Below are positions 12,280 through 26,425 of a stretch of DNA of 64,000 bases, in pieces. The notes beneath the pieces were generated by a model that was not told the DNA's origin, did not search any database, and saw only the letters and a list, made by a program, of their open reading frames with translations. This stretch comes from Polyangiaceae bacterium UTPRO1 (GTDB lineage: Bacteria; Desulfobacterota; Binatia; UTPRO1). Made by a program: the position numbers and the translations under genes. Every line of letters starts with the position of its first letter. Positions within the stretch are counted from its first letter, which is position 1. The stretch spans positions 67,693 to 131,692 of the forward strand of contig MWST01000035.1 of assembly GCA_002050235.1 (NCBI GenBank), written 5' to 3'.

Positions 12280-13155
12280 ATGTCGTCATCGATGTGGAAG
12301 TCCCTGGTAGCTATCCCCGTACTGGCGCTCGTCTGCGCCGCAGGTGCAGCCGCGGAGGTGTGCGGCGATGCCGACGGCAACGGCACCGTCACCGTCACCG
12401 ACGGCGTGCAGACGTTGCGCGCCGCCGCCAGCCTCAGCAGCACCTGCACCCCGGCGCGCTGCGACGTCGACGGCAGCGGCACGATCACGGTCAGCGACGG
12501 CGTGAACGTGCTGCGCAAAGCTGCCCATCTCCCCATCACCGAGGCGTGTCCGGGCACGAGCCTCGACGCCCAGGTCCAGGGGCTCCTGCAGGGCTCGCTC
12601 CCGCTCTTCGGCGCTCTCGTCAAGGGCTTCGGCGGCGGCGCTGCGGCGCGGGCCGCGGAAACGCTAGAGTGCGAGAACCCCGGCGGCACGTTCACCGTCG
12701 AAGACAGCGGCAGGATCTCGTTCCACCACTGCGTGATGGGCGGCGGACTCGAGTACGGCGGCTTCTCCATGCCGACGGCGAACGGCCTCGACTTCGACCT
12801 CACCTTCACCGAGGTAGCTACGGGCGAGTACACGTCGATGAGCGGCAGCTTCACGGAGACGGCGCACGAGAACGGCTCCGTCCTGAACGGCCACTTCGAC
12901 TTCTCCTCCTCCGCGAGCGGCCGCTTCCGCATCATCTTCGACGCGCTCGTCGTCTCCGATGATCCCAACGCCAGTTTCATCAGCGGCAGCCTCGAGTTCC
13001 AGGTCGAGGATCCGGCGTGGAGCGGCGTCACCAGTATCCGCCTCTCCTTCGACGGCAGCGAATGGGCGATGGTCGACGTACTTCTCGGCGACGACCAGTT
13101 CGTCGCCTTCCGATACAATCTCGTGACCGGCGAGCTGGAGTCCTTCTCGCACTAG
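12280..13155 (+). CDS. secreted protein: N-terminal dockerin-like module plus unknown ~220-aa domain
   Basis: GGAGG lies 5 nt upstream of ATG 12280. Signal peptide MSSSMWKSLVAIPVLALVCAAGAAA. Module at nt 12358-12552: VCGDADGNGTVTVTDGVQTLRAAA...CDVDGSGTITVSDGVNVLRKAA. Paralog of the next gene. Confidence 0.75.
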   Translation: MSSSMWKSLVAIPVLALVCAAGAAAEVCGDADGNGTVTVTDGVQTLRAAASLSSTCTPARCDVDGSGTITVSDGVNVLRKAAHLPITEACPGTSLDAQVQGLLQGSLPLFGALVKGFGGGAAARAAETLECENPGGTFTVEDSGRISFHHCVMGGGLEYGGFSMPTANGLDFDLTFTEVATGEYTSMSGSFTETAHENGSVLNGHFDFSSSASGRFRIIFDALVVSDDPNASFISGSLEFQVEDPAWSGVTSIRLSFDGSEWAMVDVLLGDDQFVAFRYNLVTGELESFSH

Positions 13156-13170
13156 CGTCCGGACACGATC

Positions 13171-14052
13171 ATGGCGTTGCAGGCCATGCGCAACTTGGCC
13201 CTCCAGGCGCTGCTCGCCGCCGCCCTCGCCGGGTCGGCGGCGGGCGGCGCCGCCGTCTGCGGCGACGCGACCGGCGACGGCGCGGTCACGGTGACCGACG
13301 GCGTGCAGGCGCTCCGTGCTGCAGCCGGCCTCTCGACCACGTGCGACGACGGCTGCGACTTCGACGGCAACGGCACCATCACGGTGAGCGACGGTGTCAA
13401 CATCCTGCGCAAAGCAGCCGGAATCTCCGTCGTCGACGCCTGCGACTTCACGGGTGCGGAGGCCAACGGCGTCGTGAGCCCGGCGCTCCCCGTCTTCGGG
13501 GCGCTCACCAAGGTCCCCGGCGTCAGCTCGCAGGCGTCGCTAGCAGCGGGCACGTGCGACAACGACGGCACGATCACGACCGTCGGCGCCGGCAGCTCGA
13601 GCATCATCACGTTCTCCGATTGCCGACTCGGCAACGCCATCGTCGACGGCACCATCGGCCGCGTCGTCCTCGGCTCCGGTCTGGCGCTCGGGCTCGATGC
13701 CCTCAAGCTGCGGCGCGTGCGCGGCGGAGAAACGCTGACCTTGAACGGCACGCTCGGCGTCGGCGACATGCAGGGCGCCGCCAAGCTGATCGACGGCACC
13801 CTGGAGGCCGACTCGCCGCAGCGCGGCGCCTTCACGATCGCCTTCGAGCATATCGTCCTCGCCGGCGACGGCGCGGCCCGCCAGGGCTCGCTGATCTTCG
13901 ACCTGCCGGCGACGGCGGCGGGATCGATCGCGCGCATCCAGATCGACTTCGCGAACGCCGAGCGCCCGCCCGCGATCGTCACCCTGCGCACCCAACGGAT
14001 CGTCCGGTTCCTGCTCGACCGCAACACCGGCCTGCTGCATCGAGCCGCCTGA
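13171..14052 (+). CDS. secreted protein: N-terminal dockerin-like module plus unknown ~220-aa domain (paralog)
   Basis: Signal peptide MALQAMRNLALQALLAAALAGSAAGGAA. Module at nt 13255-13447: VCGDATGDGAVTVTDGVQALRAAA...CDFDGNGTITVSDGVNILRKAA. Shares LP(L/V)FGAL and a similar C-terminal end with the 12280 gene. Confidence 0.75.
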   Translation: MALQAMRNLALQALLAAALAGSAAGGAAVCGDATGDGAVTVTDGVQALRAAAGLSTTCDDGCDFDGNGTITVSDGVNILRKAAGISVVDACDFTGAEANGVVSPALPVFGALTKVPGVSSQASLAAGTCDNDGTITTVGAGSSSIITFSDCRLGNAIVDGTIGRVVLGSGLALGLDALKLRRVRGGETLTLNGTLGVGDMQGAAKLIDGTLEADSPQRGAFTIAFEHIVLAGDGAARQGSLIFDLPATAAGSIARIQIDFANAERPPAIVTLRTQRIVRFLLDRNTGLLHRAA

Positions 14053-16748
14053 AGCGCGGGGTCGCAGCGCTGGCGGCGCTGCTGACGCTGACGGCGGTCG
14101 GCAGCGCCAACGCCGCGCTCTGCGGCGACGCCGACGGCGACGGCGCCGTCACGGTGACCGACGCCGTCCGCATCCTGCGCGCGGCGGTCGGTCTGGGCGC
14201 CTGCGTAGCCGCGTGCGATCTCGACGCCGACGGCAGCCTCACCGTCACCGACGGCGTACTGGCGCTGCGCCGCGCCGCCGCCTTGCCGATCGCCGACGCC
14301 TGCCGCTCGGGAACGATCGCCGGACGGCTGCTCGTGCCCCCGGCGAGCGCTGCCGCGCACGTCGAACACGAGCCCAACGACGGCCCCGGCACGGCCGCGG
14401 TCGCGGGCCGGATCGCACCCGGCGACGCGCAGCGGCTCGTCGGCGCGATAGCGGCGGACGACCCGTACGATGCCTGGAGGTTCGTCGCCGCCGGCGCGCT
14501 CGAAATCGAGTTGACGCTCGCCTTTCCCGCCGCCCCCGGCACCGATCTCGACCTGCTGATCGACGCCGGACCGCGCGGGAGCGCGACCTGCGAAAGCGCC
14601 TTCCCCGGCCGCGAGCGCTGCCGCGTCGCGATCACTAGCGCCGAGCCGGCCGCTTTCGACCTCGTCGTCACCGCCGCGGCCGGCTCCCGGCCGTCGCCCT
14701 ACGTACTCGACGTCAGCGCTTCCTCCTCCGGCATCGCGGCGCCCGGCGTGACCGCGCTCCGCGGCGCCGGGGCACCGATCGACATCGAGCCCGAGGTCTA
14801 CCGCGGCGACACGGCGCCGATCGTGATCGGCGAGATCGTCGCGCGTCTGGAGCCGGAAGCGACCGCAGGAAGATCGCCTGCGACTGCGCGCGCGCTCGCG
14901 GCCGTCGCTGACATCGGTCTGCGCGAGCCGATGGCCACGGTGCTCGCGGCCCCGGACGGCACGGTGGTGATGATGCTGCCGACGCTGCGTGCGAGCACGG
15001 CGGCGCGCGGACGCGGTGCCGCTGCCGGACTCGCGGCCAAGCGCGCGCGCGCGGCGGCGCGGGCGCGCACCCGCGCCGCCGCTGCCGCGCTCGCCGCCGC
15101 TCCCGACGTCCTCTTCGCCGCGCCCAACCGCCTGGCGCGTGCGGCGCGGATCCCGCGCGACCCGCTCTATCCACGCCAGTGGCACTACGCCGCGATCGGA
15201 TTGCCGAGCGCCTGGGACGTTACCATCGGCAGCCCTGCCACCGTGGTAGCGGTCGTCGACACCGGCATCCGCAGCGACCACCCGGACCTCGCCGGCCGCC
15301 TCGTTCCCGGCTTCGACTTCATCAGCAGCGCCCAGCGCGCCAACGACGGCGACGGCATCGATCCCGATCCCTTCGACCCTGGCGACCAGCCCGACCGCGA
15401 CGACGGCGGCACGTTCCACGGCACGCACGTCGCCGGCACCATCGCCGCGGCCAGCAACGATACGCTCGGCGTCGCCGGGGTCACCTGGCGGACCTCGATC
15501 ATGCCGTTGCGCGCGCTCGGTATCGGCGGCGGCACGCTCTTCGACATCGCCCAGGCAATCCGGTTCGCGGCCGGTCTCCCCAACGTATCGGGCGTGCTGC
15601 CGGCGATCCCGGCCCGGATCCTCAACCTGAGCCTCACGACGAGCAACGACGACCCGGTCCTGCGCAGCGCCATCGACGCAGCGACGGCCGCGGGGCTGCT
15701 GGTCGTCGCGGCGGCCGGGAACACCGGCGGGCGGGCTACGCTGGTGCCCGCGTCGTATCCGAACGTCATGAGCGTCGCCGCCACCGACCGCCTCGGAGCA
15801 CCAGCGCGCTACTCGACCGCCGGACCCGGCGTCGATCTCGCCGCGCCCGGCGGCGACACGCACCGCGACCGCGACGCCGACGGCTTCGTCGACGGCGTGC
15901 TCAGCACGCGCCTGCCCGGCGTCGAGGACTACGGGCTCCTGCAAGGCACGTCGATGGCGAGTGCGCACGTAAGCGGCGTCGCCGCGCTCCTGCTCGGCGT
16001 CCCCGGCGGCGCCTCGGCGTCGCGCCTGCGCGAGGTCCTGCTCGCAACGGCCGATGATCGGGGCGCTCCGGGACGCGACGATCGCTATGGGGCCGGCATC
16101 GTCGACGCGGCGCGCGCCGTCCGCCTGCTGGGCGGCATCGCGCCCCCGGCCGAGCCCACCCTCACCATTGCCGCGTCGACGGTCCGTATCGCTGCCGACG
16201 AAAGCGTCCTGCAGGTGCCGTTTGCGAATGCGGGCGGCGGCGACCTGGCCTTCGCTCCACCCGTCGTGGCGACGGACGACGGCGAACGCTGGCTCGCCGC
16301 CGCCATCACCGGCGGAGCGCTGCGCCTCGAGGTCGACCGTGACGGCCTCGTCGGAGGATCCCATACCGGACGCGTCGATCTCGCCTCGACCGGCGGCGCC
16401 GCGGCGCTCACGGTGGTCGCCGAGGTCGCAGCGGCGCCGCCCGCCGACATCGGCCCGGTGACGATCCTCCTGCGCGACGCCGCGACCGGGGTGATCCTCG
16501 CCACGACCACGGCCGTCGCCGCCGGCTACTACCGATATCGCTTCACCGGCGTCGCACCGGGACGATACGAGATCATCGCCACCACCGATCGCGACGGCGA
16601 CGGCGCTATTTGCGACGTCGGCGAGGCCTGCGGCGCCTATCCGGACCGCAACGCCCCCGATCCGGTCACGGTCGCTGCCGGCGACATCGTCGGCGCCCGC
16701 GACTTCGCGCTGCAACTAGTCGTCAGTACGGCAGAAAACGCGCCCTGA
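14049..16748 (+). CDS. secreted S8 subtilisin-family serine protease with N-terminal dockerin-like module and PPC-like domain
   Basis: Catalytic triad blocks VVAVVDTGI, HGTHVAGTIAA and GTSMASAHVSGVAALL. Dockerin-like module at nt 14118-14310. The start is uncertain. The signal peptide (L)KRGVAALAALLTLTAVGSANA begins at a CTG (14049), with no in-frame ATG/GTG/TTG nearby. The track ORF 13017..16748 is a shadow extension. Confidence 0.8.
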   Translation: MKRGVAALAALLTLTAVGSANAALCGDADGDGAVTVTDAVRILRAAVGLGACVAACDLDADGSLTVTDGVLALRRAAALPIADACRSGTIAGRLLVPPASAAAHVEHEPNDGPGTAAVAGRIAPGDAQRLVGAIAADDPYDAWRFVAAGALEIELTLAFPAAPGTDLDLLIDAGPRGSATCESAFPGRERCRVAITSAEPAAFDLVVTAAAGSRPSPYVLDVSASSSGIAAPGVTALRGAGAPIDIEPEVYRGDTAPIVIGEIVARLEPEATAGRSPATARALAAVADIGLREPMATVLAAPDGTVVMMLPTLRASTAARGRGAAAGLAAKRARAAARARTRAAAAALAAAPDVLFAAPNRLARAARIPRDPLYPRQWHYAAIGLPSAWDVTIGSPATVVAVVDTGIRSDHPDLAGRLVPGFDFISSAQRANDGDGIDPDPFDPGDQPDRDDGGTFHGTHVAGTIAAASNDTLGVAGVTWRTSIMPLRALGIGGGTLFDIAQAIRFAAGLPNVSGVLPAIPARILNLSLTTSNDDPVLRSAIDAATAAGLLVVAAAGNTGGRATLVPASYPNVMSVAATDRLGAPARYSTAGPGVDLAAPGGDTHRDRDADGFVDGVLSTRLPGVEDYGLLQGTSMASAHVSGVAALLLGVPGGASASRLREVLLATADDRGAPGRDDRYGAGIVDAARAVRLLGGIAPPAEPTLTIAASTVRIAADESVLQVPFANAGGGDLAFAPPVVATDDGERWLAAAITGGALRLEVDRDGLVGGSHTGRVDLASTGGAAALTVVAEVAAAPPADIGPVTILLRDAATGVILATTTAVAAGYYRYRFTGVAPGRYEIIATTDRDGDGAICDVGEACGAYPDRNAPDPVTVAAGDIVGARDFALQLVVSTAENAP

Positions 16749-16773
16749 CAGGGGGCACCCGCGCCGCGGGCAG

Positions 16774-16801
16774 CTTGACCATGCTTCGAGCCTTCTGTTA
16801 A
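16774..16801 (+). promoter_or_regulatory. candidate sigma70-type promoter for the lipoprotein gene
   Basis: TTGACC (16774-16779), a 16-nt spacer, then GTTAAT (16796-16801), about 90 nt upstream of ATG 16892. A local low-GC patch in a high-GC intergenic region. Confidence 0.3.
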
Positions 16802-16891
16802 TGCGACGGCCTTACGCGCTCGGGATGCGAGCGCACGAGGGTCGCAGGAGCCGCGCTCACGGCCACTGTACACGGAGGAGGAACGATCACG

Positions 16892-17458
16892 ATGAAATAC
16901 ACGCTCAAGTCTGGACTCACGATCGGGATGATGGTGGCGGCGCTCGCCTTGACCGGCGGCTGCGGCGACAACGACAACAACCACAACGACAACGGCCATG
17001 CGCAGCCGACGCGCACGGCGACGCCGAAGCCGGGCGTGACACCGACGGCGGTGGCACCGACGGTAACGCCGGCGACCGAGCCGACGTCGACGCCGAGCGG
17101 CACCACCGAGCACACGGTCACTTTCGACTTCACCGCTGCGCACGGCATCCAGGCCTTCCAGGTGCGCGTCGCGTATCCGAAGGAGAAGGGCAGCTTCGCC
17201 GGCGCGGCCGATCAGGTCGAGTGCACTGTGGACGGCGGCGGCGGCATCTTCACCAAGAATCACAACGACGCGGCCGGAACCCTGACGTTGAGCGTAGCGA
17301 ACACGTCGGACCTCACCTTCCCGATCAATATCCAGTGCACCTTCGAGGCGACGGCCGCGATCTCGGCGGACGACCTCGATGTGACGGTGCAGGAAGTGAC
17401 GCAGAACAACGCTCCCGGCAACGTCGCCGACCTGAGCGTCGGCAAGTCGGTCTCGTAG
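16892..17458 (+). CDS. lipoprotein with Thr/Pro-rich linker and C-terminal beta-rich (possibly cohesin-like) domain
   Basis: GGAGGAGG upstream of the ATG. Lipobox LALTGGC. Linker PTRTATPKPGVTPTAVAPTVTPATEPTSTPSGTT. The ~115-aa domain contains GIQAFQVRVAYP. The cohesin assignment is inference only. Confidence 0.7.
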   Translation: MKYTLKSGLTIGMMVAALALTGGCGDNDNNHNDNGHAQPTRTATPKPGVTPTAVAPTVTPATEPTSTPSGTTEHTVTFDFTAAHGIQAFQVRVAYPKEKGSFAGAADQVECTVDGGGGIFTKNHNDAAGTLTLSVANTSDLTFPINIQCTFEATAAISADDLDVTVQEVTQNNAPGNVADLSVGKSVS

Positions 17459-17486
17459 TAGGCGCCGAGTCCTCGGCGCAGCGGCC

Positions 17487-17518
17487 GGCGGGCGGCGTGG
17501 ACATCCACGCCGCCCGCC
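17487..17518. terminator. bidirectional intrinsic-terminator-like hairpin between convergent genes
   Basis: Perfect 14-bp GC-rich stem ggcgggcggcgtgg / ccacgccgcccgcc with a 4-nt loop (acat), followed by gccgTTTcc. It lies between the stops at 17458 (+) and 17544 (-). Confidence 0.55.
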
Positions 17519-17543
17519 GCCGTTTCCGCTCCCCGCGAGGAGC

Positions 17544-18941
17544 TCAGAAGGTCTTTTCGAATCCCAGCGTCGGGATGAAATCGGCGCGCAGACCATCCTG
17601 GTTGAGCGGCACCAGGAAGTTCAGGAAGAGGATGCCCTGCTCGCCCACCGCGAAGCGGGCGCCGACGGCGAGATCGAGGACGTCGTTGCGCTTGATGTCG
17701 ACGAAGATCGGCCGACCCTTGAAGTTCTGGTCCTCGTTGACGGGATTGCCGTACTCGTCGACGCCGTCGATCTCGCTGAGCGGCTGCACGAGCGTCGGCA
17801 CGCCGCCGATTCGGCGCACGGCCGGCAGCCGACCCGTGTTCGGGATCCGCCCCTGGGAGCCGAACTCGCTGCGGCCGATGAAATCGACCGTCACCGCGAG
17901 CGCATTCGTCGCCTGCGCGGTGAAGCCGGCGGCATAGCGCGCCTGGCTGCGGTCGATCGTGTTGACGTTGAACTGCACGCCGCCTTGGGCGTGGAACTCG
18001 AGGAAGTCGAGCACGTCCTTGGAGGCTACGAGCGAAGTCTGCAGCCGGGTGTCGCCCGTCCCCTGGAAGTTCTCCTTCTTGCCGGTGGGCAGGGAGAGGT
18101 CGAGGAGCGCCGCCATGCTGACGGGCCGCCGCAGCGGCGCATATTTCGCGCGCAGGTGGATGTCGCCGATGCCGAGCTTGTCGTCGCGGTCGGCCGTGGG
18201 ATCGAGAACGGTGAACGAGCCCGCCACGCCGTTCACCACCGCGGCTTGATCGCCCAAGCCCGAGCGGAAGAGCGTATCGCAGTCGGCCGAGACGCCGAGG
18301 CAGCGCGGATCCGGCAGACGCTCCACCAGCGAGCTGCGGGCGTAGGTATAGAGCACCGGGATGTCGATGTTCACATCGAGGTCGTCGAGCACGCCGTAGG
18401 TGAAGCTGAAGTCCCAGAGCTGGGTCTCGAGATCGAGATGCAGGTTCAGCTCGTCGCCGATCAGCGCCTCGTTGACCCCGTTGTTGTCGAGGTCGGCAGT
18501 CCGCGACGGCCCGAAGAACCCGATCTTGCCGGTCTCGGGAACATAGGCGACCTCGGCGCGATTGCGCAGCTTGTCGATGTTCCTGCCGTTGAACTCGTCG
18601 AACCGGATCCAACTGTAGGATGCGTTCAGGTTGAACTTGTTGCGTCCGAGCGTCACGGCGCGCTCGGAGAAGAGCGGTCCGAACGTCTTCGCCGACCGCT
18701 CCAGCACCTCGAGCTCGGGATTCCACTCGTAGGTATAGCCCGCCGAGGTAGAGAGGGTCGGGATCTGGTTCGCGACCTGCGTCGAGATGGCGGTCGAGAG
18801 CGGCATGATCGCAGCCTCGAGGAAGGTCCCTCGGGCCGACGGCGGAACGAGCGTACGCTGCAGAGTCCGGGCCGCCGCCGGGGTCGCCGCTCCCACCATG
18901 CCCGCCACCGCGAGCGCCGCCACCGAAAATGCCAACCGCAT
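17544..18941 (-). CDS. outer-membrane beta-barrel protein
   Basis: Internal ATG (18939-18941) gives signal peptide MRLAFSVAALAVAGMVGAATPAAA. Alternating beta-strand pattern, with the C-terminus ending LGFEKTF (terminal Phe). Confidence 0.7.
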   Translation of the reverse strand: MRLAFSVAALAVAGMVGAATPAAARTLQRTLVPPSARGTFLEAAIMPLSTAISTQVANQIPTLSTSAGYTYEWNPELEVLERSAKTFGPLFSERAVTLGRNKFNLNASYSWIRFDEFNGRNIDKLRNRAEVAYVPETGKIGFFGPSRTADLDNNGVNEALIGDELNLHLDLETQLWDFSFTYGVLDDLDVNIDIPVLYTYARSSLVERLPDPRCLGVSADCDTLFRSGLGDQAAVVNGVAGSFTVLDPTADRDDKLGIGDIHLRAKYAPLRRPVSMAALLDLSLPTGKKENFQGTGDTRLQTSLVASKDVLDFLEFHAQGGVQFNVNTIDRSQARYAAGFTAQATNALAVTVDFIGRSEFGSQGRIPNTGRLPAVRRIGGVPTLVQPLSEIDGVDEYGNPVNEDQNFKGRPIFVDIKRNDVLDLAVGARFAVGEQGILFLNFLVPLNQDGLRADFIPTLGFEKTF

Positions 18942-19120: not shown

Positions 19121-19867
19121 ATGAAGATCAGGGGGGCAGCGCGCACCGATCGGGGTCGGGTGCGGCGCGAGAATCAGGACCACTTCGGACTCGCCGCGGA
19201 CCGCGGCCTCGGCTTCGTCGCCGACGGCATGGGAGGACACGCCGGCGGCAGGCGGGCCAGCGAAGAAGCAGTGCGGGTGATCACGGAATCACTCGCCGCG
19301 GACACACCCGGCGGCGCGGACGGCAGTGGACGCCTCCGCCAGGCCATCGAGGAAGCCAACCGCCGCATCTGGGCGCTGCCGCAGTCGGAGCCGGCGCTCC
19401 ACGGCCTCGGGACCACGATAGCCGCCATGCTGATCGAAGGCGGCGTCGGCCACGTCGCCCACGTCGGTGATTCGCGCGTCTACCGCATCCGCAACGGCGC
19501 CATCGAAGCGCTGACGCGCGACCACTCCTATCTGAACGACCTCGCCGCCCGCGGCGTCGAGCTCACCGACCCCGCCGCGCGCGCGCGCTACGAGAGCGTG
19601 CTCACGCGGGCGATCGGCGTCGCCCCGACCGTCGACGTCGACGTGTCCTCTCGTCCGGTCACCCCCGGCGATACCTTCCTTCTCTGTTCGGACGGCGTCT
19701 ACCGCGTCCTCGCTCCCGAGCGGCTCGCGGAGATCGTCGCCGAGGGCGGCGACGATCTCGACGCCATCTGTGCCACCGTCATCGCGCGCACGAACGACGG
19801 CGGCGGTCCGGACAACTGCACCGTCGTCGTGTTGCGCGTCGATCCGGACGGCGCAGGCTCCTCGTGA
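19121..19867 (+). CDS. PP2C-family Ser/Thr protein phosphatase
   Basis: Motifs RTDRGRVRRENQD, ADGMGGHAGG, LCSDGV and GGPDNCTVVV. Confidence 0.85.
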   Translation: MKIRGAARTDRGRVRRENQDHFGLAADRGLGFVADGMGGHAGGRRASEEAVRVITESLAADTPGGADGSGRLRQAIEEANRRIWALPQSEPALHGLGTTIAAMLIEGGVGHVAHVGDSRVYRIRNGAIEALTRDHSYLNDLAARGVELTDPAARARYESVLTRAIGVAPTVDVDVSSRPVTPGDTFLLCSDGVYRVLAPERLAEIVAEGGDDLDAICATVIARTNDGGGPDNCTVVVLRVDPDGAGSS

Positions 19868-22800
19868 AGATCTCCGCCCGTTACGAGGTTCTAGGCCTCC
19901 TCGGCCAAGGCGGGATGGGCGTGGTGTACCACGTCCGCGACACGACCCGCGGCCGCGAGAACGCCCTCAAGACTCTCGCTCCCGGCCGCTCCGAGGACAT
20001 CATCGAGCGCTTTCTTACGGAAGCACAGGTGATGTTCCGCCTCGAGCACGACAACATCGTGCGCGTCTACGATTTCGGCAAGGACGGCGAAACCTACTTC
20101 CTCACCATGGAGCTGATCCGCGGCAAGAACCTGCGGCAGCTCCTGAATGCCCGTCAGAACAAGGGCTTTCCGCTCGCGGAAGTGATCCGCATGGGTATCC
20201 AGGCGGCTGACGCCCTCAACTACGCGCACAGCCAGAAACCCGAGGCCGTCGTCCACCGCGACATCAAGCCCGTCAACATCATGGTCGAGGAAGAGACGGG
20301 GCGCGTCGTCGTCGCCGACTTCGGCATCGCCAAGCTCATGGCCGACGCCGGCGGCGGCGAGACCCAGATCGGCAACGCTGCGACGCATACGGTCTTCGCC
20401 GGCACCGTGCCCTACTCGGCGCCCGAGCAGTTCCTCGCCGGCGGCGGCGGGCGTCGCCTCGACGCGCGCGTCGACATCTACGCCCTCGGCATCGTCCTCT
20501 ACGAGATCTACACCGGCCGGCACTTCTTCGCCGGCCTCTCCGCCGAAGAGGTCGAGCAGCATCATCGTTCCATCGAAACGGGCGAGTGCCCGGTCAAGCG
20601 GCCACACGCCTGCGACCACAAGATCACGACCCTGCCCGAAGCGCCGCAGGCTTTCATCGAGGTCATCGAGAGGGCGATCGCCCGCGACCGTCACGAGCGG
20701 TACCGGACCGCGGCGGAGATGCTCGCCGACCTCCGGGCCTGCGCGGCCGTGGAGTCGGTTGAGGCCGTCGCCGCCGCGCGCCGCACCGCCGAGGCCGCAG
20801 GCGCGCTCGAGGCGGCGACCACGGATTTCCGGCGCGGCGACGAGCTCGAGCGCGAGGCCCAGGCGGCACGCGAGCGCGGCGACGACACGCGCGCCGGCGA
20901 GCTCTATCGCGATGCTCTCCAGGCATACGGCGCAGCCGCCGCGCAGGCGAACGAGCGTCGCAGCCAACGCGCCGCGCAGCAGGCGAAGACGGCCATGCAG
21001 ATCGTCGCCCGGGAAGCCACCGAGCGCGATCTCACAGCGCTCGCCCCGGAGGCGATGAAGCACGCCGCCCAGCTCGTCGCCACGGCCGAGGCGAGCGAGG
21101 TCCAAGGACAGTACGAGCAGGCAACGGCGCAGTACCGCCAAGCCGAGGAGGCGTTTCGCGCCGCCCTCGTCACGGCACGTCAAGCCAGCGCGCGCAAGGC
21201 GATCGAGGACGAGATGCCGGCGCTCCGCGCCGCCCGGGAGGCTGCCGAGCAGGCCGATGCCGCGACGCTCGCCGCCGATGTGTTCGCCGCGGCCGTCCGC
21301 GAGCAGATCCGCCTCGAGGAGGCGCTCGCCGCCGGCGAGCTGACCCGCGTCCGCGAGCTCTTGCCGCAGGTCCGCGACCGGTTCGCCGCCGCCGGCGAGG
21401 AGGCCGGCCGGCGCCTCCACCAGAGCGTCGACGAGGCCCGTGCCGCCATGCGCGCCGCTGCCGCCGAGGCGACCGCGGCAGACGCTCCCCGGCACGCGAA
21501 GGCGGAGAGCATCGAAGCCGAGGCCCTAGCGGGCGCCGCGGAGAAACTGATCGAGCGCGGGCAGCTAGAGCTCGCCGCAGCCCAGCTTGGACGCGCCGCC
21601 GACGCCTACCGCGCCGCCGCATCGGCAGCGGCCCGAGCCGGCGAGCGGGAGGTGCTCGAGAAAGAGCTGCCCGCGCTCCGAGCGGCGCGCGCGGCTGCCG
21701 AGAGCGCCGGCGCAGCGACGCTCGCGGCCGACACCTTCGCAGCGGCGGCACGTGAGCAGGCCGATTTCGAAGCCGCCCTCGCCGCCGGCGAGCTGACCCG
21801 CGTCCGCACGCTCCTGCCGCGGGTCGGCGATGGCTTCGCCGCCGCCAGGCAAGCAGCGATCCTCGCCCAGGCAAGCCGCGCCGCGCTCGCGGCCCGCTCC
21901 GCCATGGCGGCCGCACGCGACGCCGCTATCGCCGCCGGCGCCGAGCAGCTCGTCCCCGACGCGCTCGCCCGGGTCCGCGCGCGCGAGCGCGAGGCCGCCG
22001 CTGCGGAAGAGGACCGGCAATGGGACCGTGCCGAGCAGCTCTACCGTGAGGTCGCGACGGCGTTCGACGAGGTCCGCGCTGCGGCGCTGCGGCGTGCCGA
22101 GGAGGAGCGTCTGGCCGCGGCGCTGGTCGAAGCCCGGAGCTCGATGGAAGCGGCACGGACACGCGCCAGGAACGCGGGAGCCGAGCGCTACGCAGCGGCG
22201 CTAGTAGCCGAGGCGGATGCGCTCGCACAACAGGCCGGCGGAGCCGCGAACGACGCCGCCGGCATGGCGTCAGCGGCCGCCGACTACGCGCGCGCACGCG
22301 AGCGCTACGACGCCGCGATCACCGAGGCCGCGCGTGTCGCTCGCCGCCACGAGCTGCGGGAGACCCTGGCCACCGTCGCCGCGGCGAAGCAGCAAGCGGT
22401 CGATGCCGGCGCTGACGAGACCGCCGAGTTCATAGCCGCGGCCGACGAGCTCGCCGCGGCCGAACGAGCGCTCGCTGCCGACGAGCTGAGCCTCGTCGTG
22501 AGCTCCGCGGCGGCGGCCCGTGAGCGCTTCGCCGCCGCCGAGAACGCCGCTGCGCGCGCCAAGATCGAGGCCGCCGCCGACACGGCGCTCGCCGACGCCG
22601 CGGCGGCCGGAGCGGAAGCGCGGGAGGCAGGCGCCGAAACGCTCGCCGCCGCGGCTTGGGCCGTCGCCGTCGAACAGCAGCAGCGGGCGCTCGCACGCCG
22701 CCGGGACGGCGACTGCAACGCCGTCCCGGGGATCGCCGCGGAAGCCGAGCGGGCGTTCGCAGCCGCGCTCGAGGAGGCCGTGCACGCGGCCTACGAGAGC

Positions 22801-24894
22801 GCGGTCGCAGCGCGGGCGGCGGCCGGACTGGACGGACCCGACGACCAGGCCGCCAACGCTGCGGAGCAGGCGTTCACGGCCGGCGAGCGACGGCAACGGG
22901 AAGGAAAACGCGTCGCCGCGGCGATCGCGTTCCGCAAGGCCGCCGAGAGCTACCGGGCGGTGACCGCGGCGCGAGCCGGTGCCCGCGCCGCCCGCGACGC
23001 CGCGCGCGCTGCGCACCTGGAGGCCGAGGCCGCCGGTGCCGCCGAGCTCGCGGCCGCCGAGCTGGCGCAGGCGAACGAGACGCTGGCGGTCGCCGAGCGC
23101 GCTCTCGAGAGCGGAGACTACGACGGCAGCGAGCGCAGCTTCGCGACGGCGCGCGACGCCTTCGGCCGGGCGCGCGACGCCGCGGTGCGGGCGGCTGCCG
23201 AGCGCGATGCGCAGGCGGCGCGGGCTCGCGTCGAGGACCTGCGGGCGACGCGCGCTCCGGCGGCTGCCGGCTTCTTCGCGCGCCGCAAGCTTGCGAAGGC
23301 GGATGCGGCACACGCGCGCGGTACCGCCGCGGCAACGCGCGGAAATTTTGCGGCCGCCGCCGCTGCCTACAACGAAGCGGCCGAGGTCTTGGCGGCGCTG
23401 CCTGCGGGGACGATACCGCCTCCGGCCGCCCCCACGGCCGAACGGGCGGCGCCGACCGCCGCTGCCGCCGAGACGATGTCGGCCGTCGGTGTGGCGCCCG
23501 GCAGCGAAGCGACCACGCTGGCACCTGACCAGGCGCTCGCAGACGCCACCGTCGTTAGCGATGGCGCCGCGGTTGCCGGCTCTGCCGACGCCACCGTCGT
23601 TGCCGCGGCTGCCGGCGCCGCGACCGTGGTCGCGCGCCAGCAGCCGCCGGCGCCGACCGGACGAGGACTGCCGGTGGCGTGGATCGGCATCGGCGCCGCG
23701 GGCGTCGCGCTGCTCGCCGGCGTCTGGCTGTTGCGCGGCGGCTCCACGGGCACGATGCCACAGCCGGCGCCGCCGCAGGTGGCGGTGCCGGCCGACGCGG
23801 CAGCGTCCAAGGAAGCTGGCGCGGTAGCACCGCCGGCACCGCCGCAGCAGGTGGTCGAGGACCGTCGGCCGGAGCCGGCGGCGCCGACTGCTCCGCCCCA
23901 GCAGATCGCCAAGGTCGAAGAGCCGCCCCCACCCGAGGTTCCGGCGGCCGCCCCCGTCATCAGCGGCTTCGAGCCCCGCGGCAAGACGGTACAGGCCGCG
24001 CCCGGTAGGAGCACGCGCTTCAAGGTGACCGCAAAAGACGACGGCAGCGCTCCCCTGCGCTACGCCTGGTTCGTCGACGACAAAGCCGCAGGCGACGGCA
24101 CGCCGACCCTCGAGCTCACCCCCACCGACGACGACGAAGGAACGACCCGCGAAGTGCGCGCCGAAGTGGCGGTCGGAACCGGTCCCGTGGCGCGCACTGC
24201 GTGGACCGTCACCGTGCCGCGCGCGCCCGTCGCCATCACGCACCAGGTTCCGGCGCCGGCGGAGATCATCGCCGCTCTCGGCGACGCCACCGATTTCAGC
24301 GTCGAGGCCCGCGCCGGACGGGCGCCGGCGAGCGCACTCTCCTATGTCTGGACCGTCGACAAGCGTCCGGTCCACGGCGCCGACGGACCGCGCTTCACGT
24401 ACCGTTCCGAGCACGCCGGCAGCACCGATGTCGAAGTGCGCGTCGAGGCACCGGAGCGCGCCGCCGCGGTCCGGCATTGGACCGTCCGGGCGCACCCGCG
24501 GGAGCCCGTCGCCGTGCCGACGCAGGTCGCGGCGCTGCCGCCGCGCCTCGCGCCGACGCCGCTCGCGCCGCACGCCGGCAGCGATCCGCGGCGCGAGCTC
24601 GAGAGCTGGATCGCCTCCTATCGCGACGCGTATCAGCGCAAGAACGTCGACGAGCTCCTGGCGCTCGGTGTCGTCAAGCCCGAGAACCGCAGCAAGCTCG
24701 CGGCCGCGTTGAACGATCTGGTCGATCTCGAGGTGCGCATCGCCAGGAGCGCCATCGACGTGCATAGCCCCGACAGCGCGGTGGTCACGCTGACGCGCGA
24801 GGACAGCTTCAATGCCGGCGGCCGGCGCCAGACGCAGTCGATCGACATCAGGAAGAACCTGCACAAGGTGAACGGCTCGTGGGTCGCGCAATGA
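19864..24894 (+). CDS. giant Ser/Thr protein kinase (Hanks type) with Ala-rich helical repeat array, one TM helix and an extracytoplasmic Ig-like/NTF2-like region
   Basis: GTG start overlapping the phosphatase stop (GTGA). Kinase motifs GQGGMGVVY, HRDIKPVN, DFGIAK and SAPEQ. TM helix LPVAWIGIGAAGVALLAGVWLL at nt 23668-23736. 1676 aa. Confidence 0.85.
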   Translation: MKISARYEVLGLLGQGGMGVVYHVRDTTRGRENALKTLAPGRSEDIIERFLTEAQVMFRLEHDNIVRVYDFGKDGETYFLTMELIRGKNLRQLLNARQNKGFPLAEVIRMGIQAADALNYAHSQKPEAVVHRDIKPVNIMVEEETGRVVVADFGIAKLMADAGGGETQIGNAATHTVFAGTVPYSAPEQFLAGGGGRRLDARVDIYALGIVLYEIYTGRHFFAGLSAEEVEQHHRSIETGECPVKRPHACDHKITTLPEAPQAFIEVIERAIARDRHERYRTAAEMLADLRACAAVESVEAVAAARRTAEAAGALEAATTDFRRGDELEREAQAARERGDDTRAGELYRDALQAYGAAAAQANERRSQRAAQQAKTAMQIVAREATERDLTALAPEAMKHAAQLVATAEASEVQGQYEQATAQYRQAEEAFRAALVTARQASARKAIEDEMPALRAAREAAEQADAATLAADVFAAAVREQIRLEEALAAGELTRVRELLPQVRDRFAAAGEEAGRRLHQSVDEARAAMRAAAAEATAADAPRHAKAESIEAEALAGAAEKLIERGQLELAAAQLGRAADAYRAAASAAARAGEREVLEKELPALRAARAAAESAGAATLAADTFAAAAREQADFEAALAAGELTRVRTLLPRVGDGFAAARQAAILAQASRAALAARSAMAAARDAAIAAGAEQLVPDALARVRAREREAAAAEEDRQWDRAEQLYREVATAFDEVRAAALRRAEEERLAAALVEARSSMEAARTRARNAGAERYAAALVAEADALAQQAGGAANDAAGMASAAADYARARERYDAAITEAARVARRHELRETLATVAAAKQQAVDAGADETAEFIAAADELAAAERALAADELSLVVSSAAAARERFAAAENAAARAKIEAAADTALADAAAAGAEAREAGAETLAAAAWAVAVEQQQRALARRRDGDCNAVPGIAAEAERAFAAALEEAVHAAYESAVAARAAAGLDGPDDQAANAAEQAFTAGERRQREGKRVAAAIAFRKAAESYRAVTAARAGARAARDAARAAHLEAEAAGAAELAAAELAQANETLAVAERALESGDYDGSERSFATARDAFGRARDAAVRAAAERDAQAARARVEDLRATRAPAAAGFFARRKLAKADAAHARGTAAATRGNFAAAAAAYNEAAEVLAALPAGTIPPPAAPTAERAAPTAAAAETMSAVGVAPGSEATTLAPDQALADATVVSDGAAVAGSADATVVAAAAGAATVVARQQPPAPTGRGLPVAWIGIGAAGVALLAGVWLLRGGSTGTMPQPAPPQVAVPADAAASKEAGAVAPPAPPQQVVEDRRPEPAAPTAPPQQIAKVEEPPPPEVPAAAPVISGFEPRGKTVQAAPGRSTRFKVTAKDDGSAPLRYAWFVDDKAAGDGTPTLELTPTDDDEGTTREVRAEVAVGTGPVARTAWTVTVPRAPVAITHQVPAPAEIIAALGDATDFSVEARAGRAPASALSYVWTVDKRPVHGADGPRFTYRSEHAGSTDVEVRVEAPERAAAVRHWTVRAHPREPVAVPTQVAALPPRLAPTPLAPHAGSDPRRELESWIASYRDAYQRKNVDELLALGVVKPENRSKLAAALNDLVDLEVRIARSAIDVHSPDSAVVTLTREDSFNAGGRRQTQSIDIRKNLHKVNGSWVAQ
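21181..22086 (+). repeat. 453-bp internal duplication within the kinase gene
   Basis: The identical 24-mer gccggcgagctgacccgcgtccgc occurs at 21331 and 21784 (offset 453 nt = 151 aa). The flanking protein segments ...MPALRAAREAAEQADAATLAADVFAAA... and ...LPALRAARAAAESAGAATLAADTFAAA... align throughout. Unit boundaries are approximate. Confidence 0.6.
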
Positions 24895-25511
24895 AGCTCC
24901 GTATGTTAACGGCACTGCGCATGACCGGACACGACGGGAGCAGCGCCGGCGCAGCGCGGGCCGCCGCGACGGCGATATTGCTCGGCGTAGCCCTCGGAGG
25001 TGCGGTCGCCGCGCGCTCCGCGGGAGCGACCGTAGTGGCGAACATGACCACAGCGGCGCAGGCCGCGGCCGCCGACCGCATATTCGTCGGCACGGTAGCA
25101 GCGGTCACGAGTCGCCCCGTTGCCGCCCGGCCCCAGTGGTTCGAGACGGCCGTGCGCTTCACGGTCGAGGAGGCGGTTGCCGGCACGTTCCCGGCGAGCG
25201 TCGAGCTCGTGTACTCCGGCGGCGAGGTGGGCGGCGTTCGCCAGCGCGTCGACGGCATGCCGGAGCTCGCGGTCGGCGAACGCTACGTCGTGCTCCTCGA
25301 GCCCGAGCGCACGCCGCCGCTCGCGAGTCCGTTCGTCGGCTTCAACCAAGGCCTCTACCGCGTGATCGGCGATGCCCGCACCGCCGCGGTCGTCCGCGAT
25401 CGTCAGGGGCGGAGCCTCGCAAGCAGCGCCGCCCAGGTGGGAGCGCGCGGCGCCGGCGGCGATCCCACGCTCGACGCCTTCCTCGACTTCTTGCGAGCCG
25501 CCCGCAAGTGA
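24891..25511 (+). CDS. secreted hypothetical protein
   Basis: ATG 24891 overlaps the kinase stop (ATGA); an alternative GTG lies at 24879. Hydrophobic segment AAATAILLGVALGGAVAA. No family recognised. Confidence 0.55.
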   Translation: MKLRMLTALRMTGHDGSSAGAARAAATAILLGVALGGAVAARSAGATVVANMTTAAQAAAADRIFVGTVAAVTSRPVAARPQWFETAVRFTVEEAVAGTFPASVELVYSGGEVGGVRQRVDGMPELAVGERYVVLLEPERTPPLASPFVGFNQGLYRVIGDARTAAVVRDRQGRSLASSAAQVGARGAGGDPTLDAFLDFLRAARK

Positions 25512-26425
25512 CGACGCTCCTGAGCTGCCTCACCGCCGCACTGCTCGCTGGTCTCGCGCTCGCGGCACCGGCCGTCGGTCAGTCGTGCCCCTGGACGCCG
25601 GACGACGCCTACGCGTTCATCAATGCCGGGAGCCGGGAGTGCCCGGCGGATCCGGAGGTCTTCTGGCACAACGCCACCGTCGAGTTCGATTGCAGCTTCT
25701 TCGCTGCGGCCGGGACGGCCATCTACTGCGGCAGCGACGGACACGCCTGTGTCGAGCTCTGCCAGCAGGCGGCCGGCACCTGGAACACCGACCTACCGGG
25801 ACGCTTCACCTTCGTCGACGCCGAGAACACGGTGACTTTCTGCGACCCGAACGACGGCAAAGTCTCGATCGGCGGCACGTCGATGACGCTCTGCGACGGC
25901 AAGTCCCTGTACGCGAGCAACGTGCTCGCCGTAACGCTCAGCATCTTCTATACTGGAGGCTCGCAGTCGGGGCACCTGATCGACGCCAACATCACCGTCA
26001 ATCAAGCCTTCCTATTTTCGCCGGCCAGCTTCCGGGCGACGCTCGCCCACGAGCTCGGACACGTCCTCGGGCTCTCCCATCCCGACGAGTGCGGCGACGA
26101 CTACAACGTGCTCATGCGCTCCGCGTCCCTGTTTGCGCCGCAGGGCCTTTGTTTCGTCAGCGACCCGACGGCCGCCGACATCCGCGGCGCCGAACGCATA
26201 TATCCCCTGGTCGGTCCGACGCCGGGGCTCTGCGGTGACGCCGATCTGAGCGGCGCCGTCACTGTCAGCGATGGCGTCCAGGTGCTGCGTGCCGCAGCCG
26301 GGCTCTCCAGCGCCTGCACGCCGCAACGCTGCGACGTCGACGGCAGCGGCGAGATCACGGTCACCGACGGCGTGCACGTGCTGCGCACCGCCGCCGGCCT
26401 GCCGTCGATCTCGGCCTGTCCCTGA
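25508..26425 (+). CDS. secreted M10 (matrixin-like) zinc metalloprotease with C-terminal dockerin-like module
   Basis: GTG 25508 overlaps the upstream stop (GTGA). Signal peptide TTLLSCLTAALLAGLALAAPAVG. Zinc motif HELGHVLGLSH (nt 26048-26080) followed by NVLM (candidate Met-turn). Dockerin-like module at nt 26228-26422. Confidence 0.8.
   Translation: MTTLLSCLTAALLAGLALAAPAVGQSCPWTPDDAYAFINAGSRECPADPEVFWHNATVEFDCSFFAAAGTAIYCGSDGHACVELCQQAAGTWNTDLPGRFTFVDAENTVTFCDPNDGKVSIGGTSMTLCDGKSLYASNVLAVTLSIFYTGGSQSGHLIDANITVNQAFLFSPASFRATLAHELGHVLGLSHPDECGDDYNVLMRSASLFAPQGLCFVSDPTAADIRGAERIYPLVGPTPGLCGDADLSGAVTVSDGVQVLRAAAGLSSACTPQRCDVDGSGEITVTDGVHVLRTAAGLPSISACP

Follow-up and report, generated by a model that had tools for sequence, protein, structure and literature searches.

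The pairing of cohesin with dockerin modules is a classic bacterial route for the assembly of extracellular enzyme complexes and a widely used engineering tool, and surveys of the two modules rely on sequence models built mainly from Firmicutes. The described systems closest to the one considered here include the type I and type II cohesins of cellulosomes, such as Coh2 of C. thermocellum CipA (1ANU/1OHZ), the ScaC/SdbA-type cohesins (5G5D, 2BM3) and A. cellulolyticus ScaA (3GHP), and the anchoring scaffoldins, whose one or few cohesins sit on a flexible linker at the envelope, where dockerin-bearing proteins can attach, and are fixed there by SLH (S-layer homology) modules (C. thermocellum SdbA/OlpB/OlpA) or by a sortase signal (R. 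flavefaciens ScaE). The cohesin-dockerin principle is not new outside cellulosomes: the cohesins of Archaeoglobus fulgidus (2XDH), of the Ruminococcus bromii amylosome (Sca5, 7URP) and of Clostridium perfringens (2JH2/2O4E) belong to small systems with one or few cohesins, outside cellulose degradation, and non-cellulosomal cohesin-dockerin modules were reportedly surveyed by Peer et al. in 2009.

Here we describe a locus in a stretch of 64,000 nucleotides from Polyangiaceae bacterium UTPRO1 (contig MWST01000035.1; the whole stretch is called the window), an uncultured diderm of the Binatia, in which a gene for a lipoprotein of 188 amino acids (aa) lies directly downstream of three genes whose products carry dockerin-like modules. 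We lean towards the reading that this lipoprotein is a lipid-anchored, single-cohesin anchoring scaffoldin of a non-cellulosomal cohesin-dockerin-type system, predicted to bind, and so to dock, dockerin-tagged proteases.

Like the cellulosomal cohesins, which are its best structural match, the C-terminal domain of the lipoprotein is modelled as a nine-strand sandwich, and the Thr/Pro-rich linker, the tandem copies combined with a dockerin in relatives and the adjacent dockerin-bearing genes are further points in common. It differs from them in the absence of detectable sequence similarity, in its length (117 aa against 140-170) and in an invariant Cys pair; moreover, the host is a diderm rather than a Firmicute, and the proposed cargo, known here from genes and models, consists of proteases and unknown proteins instead of glycoside hydrolases. 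The non-cellulosomal cohesins are recognisable by sequence, whereas the present family is not and has no Pfam or NCBIfam model. The analogy with anchoring scaffoldins would be a functional one; as a diderm envelope would lead one to expect, the anchor is an N-terminal lipobox Cys in place of an SLH or sortase motif. Finally, the X-module-dockerin dyads of type II/III (4IU2, 5G5D) resemble 26 relatives of the lipoprotein, in which a sandwich domain and a dockerin are adjacent; however, the order in these relatives is dockerin-then-domain and not X-then-dockerin, the window protein has no dockerin, and its fold match is to the cohesin chains of such entries. What would be new, the pairing being predicted, is a compact, Cys-paired domain family not covered by existing models, a Cys-bracketed dockerin partner, a lipoprotein anchor in a diderm candidate phylum and a protease cargo. 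Full-text literature searches returned no paper on Binatota with dockerin and, judging by titles and abstracts, none of the papers retrieved on cohesin-dockerin pairs in Myxococcota or in Gram-negative lipoproteins and proteases appeared to describe this lipoprotein family.

Layout of the lipoprotein and fold of its C-terminal domain

The ORF (open reading frame) of the lipoprotein starts with ATG, and two stop codons in tandem, TAGTAG, come after it. Among 5.8 billion proteins searched there were 74 homologues, with E-values down to 1e-81, nearly all of 185-200 aa and of the same layout; those that are named come from MAGs (metagenome-assembled genomes) of Binatia or "Deltaproteobacteria". 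Cys24, Y95, G100, F102, C111, N123, G129, P144, C149, D161 and G176 are invariant among them and, because of these homologues and invariant residues, the gene is not a chance ORF. Its parts are as follows:

16892-17458, plus strand: lipoprotein gene (from the sequence and 74 homologues)
16892-16963, plus strand: signal peptide with lipobox ...ALTGG-C, Cys24 (from the sequence and the conservation of G23/C24/G25)
16964-16996, plus strand: Asn/Asp-rich tether GDNDNNHNDNG (N27, D28, N29, N32 and D33 nearly invariant; disordered in the model)
16997-17104, plus strand: Thr/Pro-rich linker, 53% T+P, with a conserved RTATP motif (predicted local distance difference test, pLDDT, <50)
17105-17455, plus strand: cohesin-like nine-strand beta-sandwich domain, residues 72-188, with invariant Cys111 and Cys149 (from AlphaFold2, AF2, and Foldseek)

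The lipoprotein signal, MKYTLKSGLTIGMMVAALALTGG-C, ends at the lipobox Cys24. Judged by eye against a PROSITE PS51257-type rule, it has K2 and K6, lacks charged residues over the six positions preceding the box, and carries Gly at both -1 and -2; the close orthologues all share G23, C24 and G25, and in the wider set C24 and G25 vary little or not at all. The tether covers residues 25-35, the linker residues 36-71 (about 36 aa), and the N-terminal half of the protein is disordered in the full-length AF2 model. The C-terminal domain, with a net charge of -9, contains HGIQAFQVRVAYPKEKGSF and TLTLSVAN...FPINIQCTFEA. This is the arrangement that the first-pass annotation, made from the letters alone, had read in the gene (lipobox, Asn/Asp stretch, Thr/Pro linker and beta domain), and its estimate of about 115 aa for the domain was close to the 117 found.

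The model of the domain alone, built from an alignment of 45 homologues, reached a pLDDT of 96.6 and a predicted template modelling score of 0.88, and consists of nine strands, the number of the cohesin beta sandwich; in the full-length model, with 31 homologues in the alignment, pLDDT was >94 over residues 71-188. When the domain-only model was compared with the PDB by Foldseek, cohesins came first, with query TM-scores (TMq) of 0.51-0.59, probabilities of 0.95-1.0 and identities of 10-15%. These alignments covered 109-144 columns, nearly the whole domain, with a root-mean-square deviation of about 3.2-4.4 Å in the best cases. The cohesin matches included 5g5d_A, 7urp, 3ghp, 3fnk, 2ccl_A, 4fl4_B, 4u3s_A, 1anu, 6kgf_A, 8ajy_A and 2xdh; 2XDH and 7URP were among the best (TMq 0.58), and 2JH2 was also matched. 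The best structural neighbours were thus type I, type II and non-cellulosomal cohesins, which made up about 30 of the top 50, and the full-length model gave the same ranking, cohesins first. The other folds matched (AP2 mu2, sialidase domains, pilins and a Cytophaga protease domain) had TMq <=0.41, with one exception at 0.49. Structure prediction, which the first-pass annotation had named as the check that could assign a different fold, thus gave a confident nine-strand sandwich with cohesins as its top neighbours, and on these models we can defend a cohesin-like fold with an undetectable sequence relationship.

Of the two sheets of a cohesin, one is made of strands 9-1-2-7-4. The other, strands 8-3-6-5, is reportedly the dockerin-binding sheet (Shimon 1997; Carvalho 2003). 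Among the orthologues of the lipoprotein, conservation was 0.78-0.91 for strands 3, 5, 6 and 8, compared with 0.65-0.72 for strands 1, 2, 4, 7 and 9. This conserved face and the linkage of the genes, described below, lend indirect support to the predicted binding of a dockerin. If the cohesin strand order is assumed, as in all this mapping of strands to sheets, the invariant Cys111 and Cys149 fall on strands 4 and 7, neighbours in the second sheet, and a stabilising disulfide between them is therefore plausible in the model.

Dockerin-like modules beside the lipoprotein gene

A profile HMM (hidden Markov model) of the module had exactly four matches in the window, in the genes designated A, B, C and F, and an HMM of the domain matched the lipoprotein only. 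Genes A, B and C are consecutive, each product opening with a signal peptide and a module:

12280-13155, plus strand: gene A, signal peptide, Cys-bracketed dockerin-like module and 200-aa domain of unknown function (module HMM; orthologues lie upstream of the lipoprotein gene elsewhere)
13171-14052, plus strand: gene B, paralogue of A with the same architecture (module HMM, tblastn)
~14049-16748, plus strand: gene C, S8 subtilase with an N-terminal dockerin-like module from about 14115 (Peptidase_S8, E = 4e-53)
25508-26425, plus strand: gene F, metzincin-type metalloprotease (HELGHVLGLSH) with a C-terminal Cys-bracketed dockerin-like module (module HMM)

The module has the form C-GDxDGxGxVTVTDGVxxLRxAA...C...C-DxDGSGxITVxDGVxxLRxAA...C and a length of about 66 aa (65-67). 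It is a duplicated segment with two 12-residue DxDxDG...D calcium-loop motifs, a helix after each of them and four invariant Cys, the latter being an addition to the classical dockerin. In the module alignment A5, each of the two loops has an invariant D at its positions 1 and 12 and an invariant G at position 6; the second loop also has an invariant D at position 3, and the LR..A motifs of the helices are equally without variation. The anatomy is that of Dockerin (PF00404), namely duplicated segments of about 22 residues, each an EF-hand-like loop followed by a helix, within 60-70 aa. Against the PDB, the module profile retrieved the dockerins 1ohz_B (1e-3), 2ccl_B, 4uyp_B and CelS, with E-values from 1e-3 to 3e-1, mixed with EF-hand proteins. 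Among paralogous cargo proteins, the modules are 60-77% identical, as against 31-50% for the passenger domains, which fits selection by a common partner.

The family of genes A and B (about 290 aa; signal peptide, dockerin and Cys-containing 200-aa domain) has 1-3 members at each locus, namely in the window, L001, L004, L009, L011 and L013, and they invariably precede the lipoprotein gene. The possibility that the passenger of A and B is a hidden copy of the cohesin-like domain was rejected (hhalign probability 0.2). As regards gene C, the start codon is uncertain: apart from a CTG at 14049, which overlaps the stop codon of gene B, the 22 codons examined ahead of the signal peptide offer no start, as they contain no in-frame ATG, GTG or TTG.

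Orthologous loci, on contigs of several MAGs, were scanned with the domain and module HMMs and by tblastn of the window proteins. The close-family alignment search gave only 6 loci among GTDB species representatives; over the whole set, all eight independent orthologous loci with enough flank carry 1-5 dockerin-like modules within about 7 kb, down to 41% protein identity:

L001/L010: 65% identity to the window protein; 4 dockerin modules
L002/L003: 41% identity; 2 dockerin modules, one on each side of the lipoprotein gene
L004/L005: distant homologue P0071, 53% identity over the aligned 45% of the query; 3 and 2 dockerin modules
L008: 74% identity; 1 dockerin module before the contig ends
L009: 67% identity; 5 dockerin modules
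L011: 63% identity; 3 dockerin modules
L013: close orthologue, only its first 32 residues on the contig; 4 dockerin modules
L016: from a cluster at roughly 44% identity; 3 dockerin modules

The sole locus without a dockerin module in the scan was L012, a contig of 2.9 kb. The co-occurrence with dockerin-bearing proteins, which the first-pass annotation had put forward as a check of its cohesin call, was therefore seen at every orthologous locus with usable flank and, as described below, also within single polypeptides of distant relatives.

The constant partner is a protein of the A/B family, of 290-305 aa, encoded directly upstream of the lipoprotein gene. Homologues of gene F adjoin the lipoprotein gene in L002-L004. 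The lipoprotein gene directly follows the S8 gene in the window, L001, L009, L011, L013 and L016, an arrangement that would suit a dedicated inhibitor, immunity or maturation factor of the upstream subtilase. In L002/L003 and L004/L005, however, the S8 gene is absent and the lipoprotein is still paired with 290-305-aa dockerin proteins, which counts against a protease-specific inhibitor role; the domain is, in addition, arrayed in large secreted proteins unrelated to subtilases, and neither subtilisin inhibitor nor propeptide folds were among the top Foldseek matches. We rejected the inhibitor on the grounds of L002-L005, and hold any such S8-dedicated factor to be highly improbable.

Multi-domain relatives and the proposed anchoring role

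An exhaustive HMMER search with the domain only returned 117 representative proteins. When 187 members of the wider family were re-scanned, 151 carried one copy of the domain, 21 two, 11 three and 4 four, so that 36 proteins have at least two, and 26 of the 187 also carry a Cys-bracketed dockerin of the same type. P0128 and P0133 are examples, each with a signal peptide, three linker-separated domains, DUF4215 Cys-rich repeats, a dockerin and a fourth domain; their dockerins score 23.7 and 26 bits with Pfam Dockerin_1, above the gathering cut-off of 22.9. The layout of scaffoldins is hence found in the family, as a lipobox anchor, a T/P linker and one module in the window protein and as 2-4 modules with a dockerin in relatives. 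The repertoire of the family mirrors that of anchoring, primary and adaptor scaffoldins: one module with an anchor, several modules in tandem with a dockerin, or one module behind an N-terminal dockerin.

Other architectures were observed along with these. In P0119, P0125, P0128, P0133, P0138, P0164, P0177 and P0178 (L014/L015), the DUF4215 repeats are followed by a dockerin directly before a copy of the domain, and in L014 two scaffoldin-like multi-domain genes adjoin each other. Two further paralogue types of the Binatia carry the domain, both away from dockerin genes: P0068-P0072 (L006/L007) represent a type of 320 aa in which an N-terminal repeat of about 90 aa (RGVQxTPDGKRVLVNKDVGxERWAIT) is duplicated, and P0120/P0102 (L018) a type of 254-282 aa with a linker of about 140 aa and the motif PRAFRTPERxAPPAFVA. 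The 254-aa paralogue shares a 7-Mb contig with the orthologue L001, and the 328-aa paralogue shares a MAG with the orthologue L009.

Several results weigh against a cohesin that receives dockerins. The Foldseek E-values were modest, from 3e-3 to 5e-2 and none <1e-3. Neither the lipoprotein nor 40 diverse family members matched Pfam Cohesin (PF00963) at E <= 10, a profile of 40 diverse domains had 0 matches in the PDB at E <= 10, and hhalign against a CipA cohesin alignment gave a probability of 0.2; since that alignment consisted of the 1ANU sequence (verified against the PDB) and only 10 close CipA relatives (shallow, Neff, the effective number of sequences, ~1.9), this comparison is weak and leaves remote homology possible. 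By sequence profile, the domain does not fall within the Cohesin family (Pfam PF00963; CATH 2.60.40.680); Pfam and NCBIfam scans of the lipoprotein gave no Pfam family and only weak lipoprotein-signal noise in NCBIfam, and phmmer found nothing meaningful among PDB sequences. The resemblance to the cohesin signature strand claimed in the first-pass annotation stays a visual impression, as no sequence-level link to the Cohesin family could be demonstrated; of its cohesin reading as a whole, the fold and the co-occurrence with dockerins are supported, and the link by sequence is not.

Further points belong to the same side. The domain is 20-50 residues shorter than solved cohesins, and the dockerin modules of the window score 13-17 bits (gene C 17 bits), below the Dockerin_1 cut-off. 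Many relatives have the dockerin fused right before the domain, with a gap of 2-9 residues, and such a fusion could be a structural dyad, in which the domain is an X-module-like companion rather than a receptor. The 254-aa long-linker and the 328-aa paralogues of the domain do not lie beside dockerin genes. In general, the fold alone is no proof of a dockerin receptor, because beta sandwiches of such size are common binding modules.

The negative sequence comparisons, the E-values all >1e-3 and the identities of 10-15% would also agree with a resemblance due to coincidence, in a generic small beta sandwich, or to an artefact of prediction, the protein being then an ordinary lineage-specific lipoprotein. 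We consider this very unlikely, given that two models from different alignments agree with a domain pLDDT >94, that the cohesins filling about 30 of the top 50 matches are of several types and nearly full-length in cover, and that dockerins accompany the domain, in the genome as well as in one and the same protein, too regularly for chance.

More weight is due to the idea that the beta sandwich serves as a binding or structural module for a different ligand, such as a polysaccharide, a substrate protein or the product of the adjacent barrel gene, which we judge possible, though rather unlikely. The lipoprotein and the barrel might then form a surface receptor or export pair, like Slam or TbpB-type partners, and the dockerin-like modules would bind something else or only stabilise their own proteins, the linkage reflecting a shared secreted-protease regulon. 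Such a ligand would be in keeping with the missing sequence link to cohesins and the marginal Foldseek E-values, with the unannotated barrel-like gene that adjoins in most orthologous loci in either orientation, with the likeness of the nearly linker-free dockerin-then-domain dyads to X-module-dockerin pairs, and with the paralogues found away from any dockerin. On the other hand, in two models the best structural neighbours are cohesins and not carbohydrate-binding or immunoglobulin-type modules; the barrel gene is missing from the L002/L003 flanks, where dockerin genes stand on both sides; and linker-separated tandem domains with one dockerin are the hallmark layout of a scaffoldin.

If the lipoprotein is an anchoring scaffoldin, it would be exported by Sec and lipidated at Cys24, and thereby held on a membrane, probably the outer one, as residue +2 is Gly and not Asp; it might face either the surface or the periplasm. 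The domain would be joined to the lipid anchor, and held off the membrane, by the Asn/Asp tether together with the Thr/Pro linker, a flexible stretch of about 36 residues. The 117-aa domain, a compact cohesin-like sandwich presumably closed by the disulfide Cys111-Cys149, would bind through one sheet the Cys-bracketed modules of about 66 aa with two calcium loops. Its cargo would be the two paralogous 290-aa proteins, the S8 serine protease and the metzincin encoded 8 kb away and, by capturing one dockerin at a time, it would retain a mostly proteolytic cargo at the cell envelope, possibly with a role for the adjacent barrel protein.

A wider proposal, about which we are divided and slightly more reserved, is that the lipoprotein is the anchoring member of an unrecognised, sequence-divergent family of compact (about 115 aa), disulfide-bonded cohesins that pair with Cys-bracketed dockerins. 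This family would serve envelope-attached protease display in uncultured diderms (Binatia and the unidentified lineages with the DUF4215 forms), would range from single-module anchors to scaffoldins with four modules and a dockerin, and would amount to a parallel, non-cellulolytic docking system missed by cohesin models. Should the domain bind the neighbouring dockerins, a whole branch of the cohesin-dockerin system would be invisible to present sequence models; it would exist in diderm uncultured soil lineages, with a lipid anchor, and the proteins that it organises there would be proteases, not glycoside hydrolases. Synthetic biology would gain small, orthogonal docking pairs stabilised by a disulfide, and >180 database proteins now without an annotated domain would gain a function.

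Expression signals and neighbouring genes

The regions on both sides of the lipoprotein gene contain the following elements:

16775-16802, plus strand: promoter-like element, TTGACC at 16775-16780, 16-nt spacer, GTTAAT at 16797-16802 (conservation in five orthologous loci)
16816-16834, plus strand: 7-bp stem-loop GCGCUCG / CGAGCGC in the 5' leader of about 90 nt (near-invariant in five loci, without covariation)
16874-16881, plus strand: strong Shine-Dalgarno sequence GGAGGAGG, 10 nt before the ATG (sequence; invariant in orthologues)
17480-17524, no strand assigned: GC-rich, terminator-like hairpin between the convergent lipoprotein and outer-membrane-protein genes (folding)
17544-18941, minus strand: gene E, putative outer-membrane beta-barrel protein, C-terminus ...GFEKTF (conserved neighbour)

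The first-pass annotation had placed a promoter at 16774-16801 and supposed that the lipoprotein gene has its own expression signals. A conserved element is really present there: in the alignment of the upstream spacers of five orthologous loci, TTGACC, the spacing and TCTGnTAA are invariant. As a consensus match the proposal fares less well, since the -35 hexamer TTGACC is good but the -10 hexamer GTTAAT is poor, and a sigma-70 consensus scan called no promoter upstream of the gene; own signals are thus supported by conservation and not by consensus. The whole spacer 16749-16891 is unusually conserved in the five loci, and the leader may be a regulated one; an Rfam scan of leader and hairpin gave noise only. 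Downstream, the 87 nt between the lipoprotein gene and gene E have a folding energy of -66.8 kcal/mol (z = -6.75), and the hairpin at 17480-17524 has a stem of about 20 bp, which agrees with the strong terminator hairpin expected at 17487-17518, although it has no T-run and, for this reason, is missing from the consensus terminator scan.

The product of gene E, of about 465 aa, has a signal peptide and a C-terminus typical of outer-membrane barrels, and had no match in Pfam, NCBIfam or the PDB. By tblastn, a homologue adjoins the lipoprotein gene in L001/L010, L004, L008, L009, L011 and L012; in L016 that position is taken by a 435-aa gene. The product of gene E might be a partner or exporter of the lipoprotein. 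Beyond gene E, at 19121-24894 on the plus strand, lie genes for a PP2C phosphatase and, next, for a Ser/Thr kinase of 1676 aa that has a long coiled region rich in Ala; this pair is kept beside the dockerin/lipoprotein cluster in L001, L002/3 and L004.

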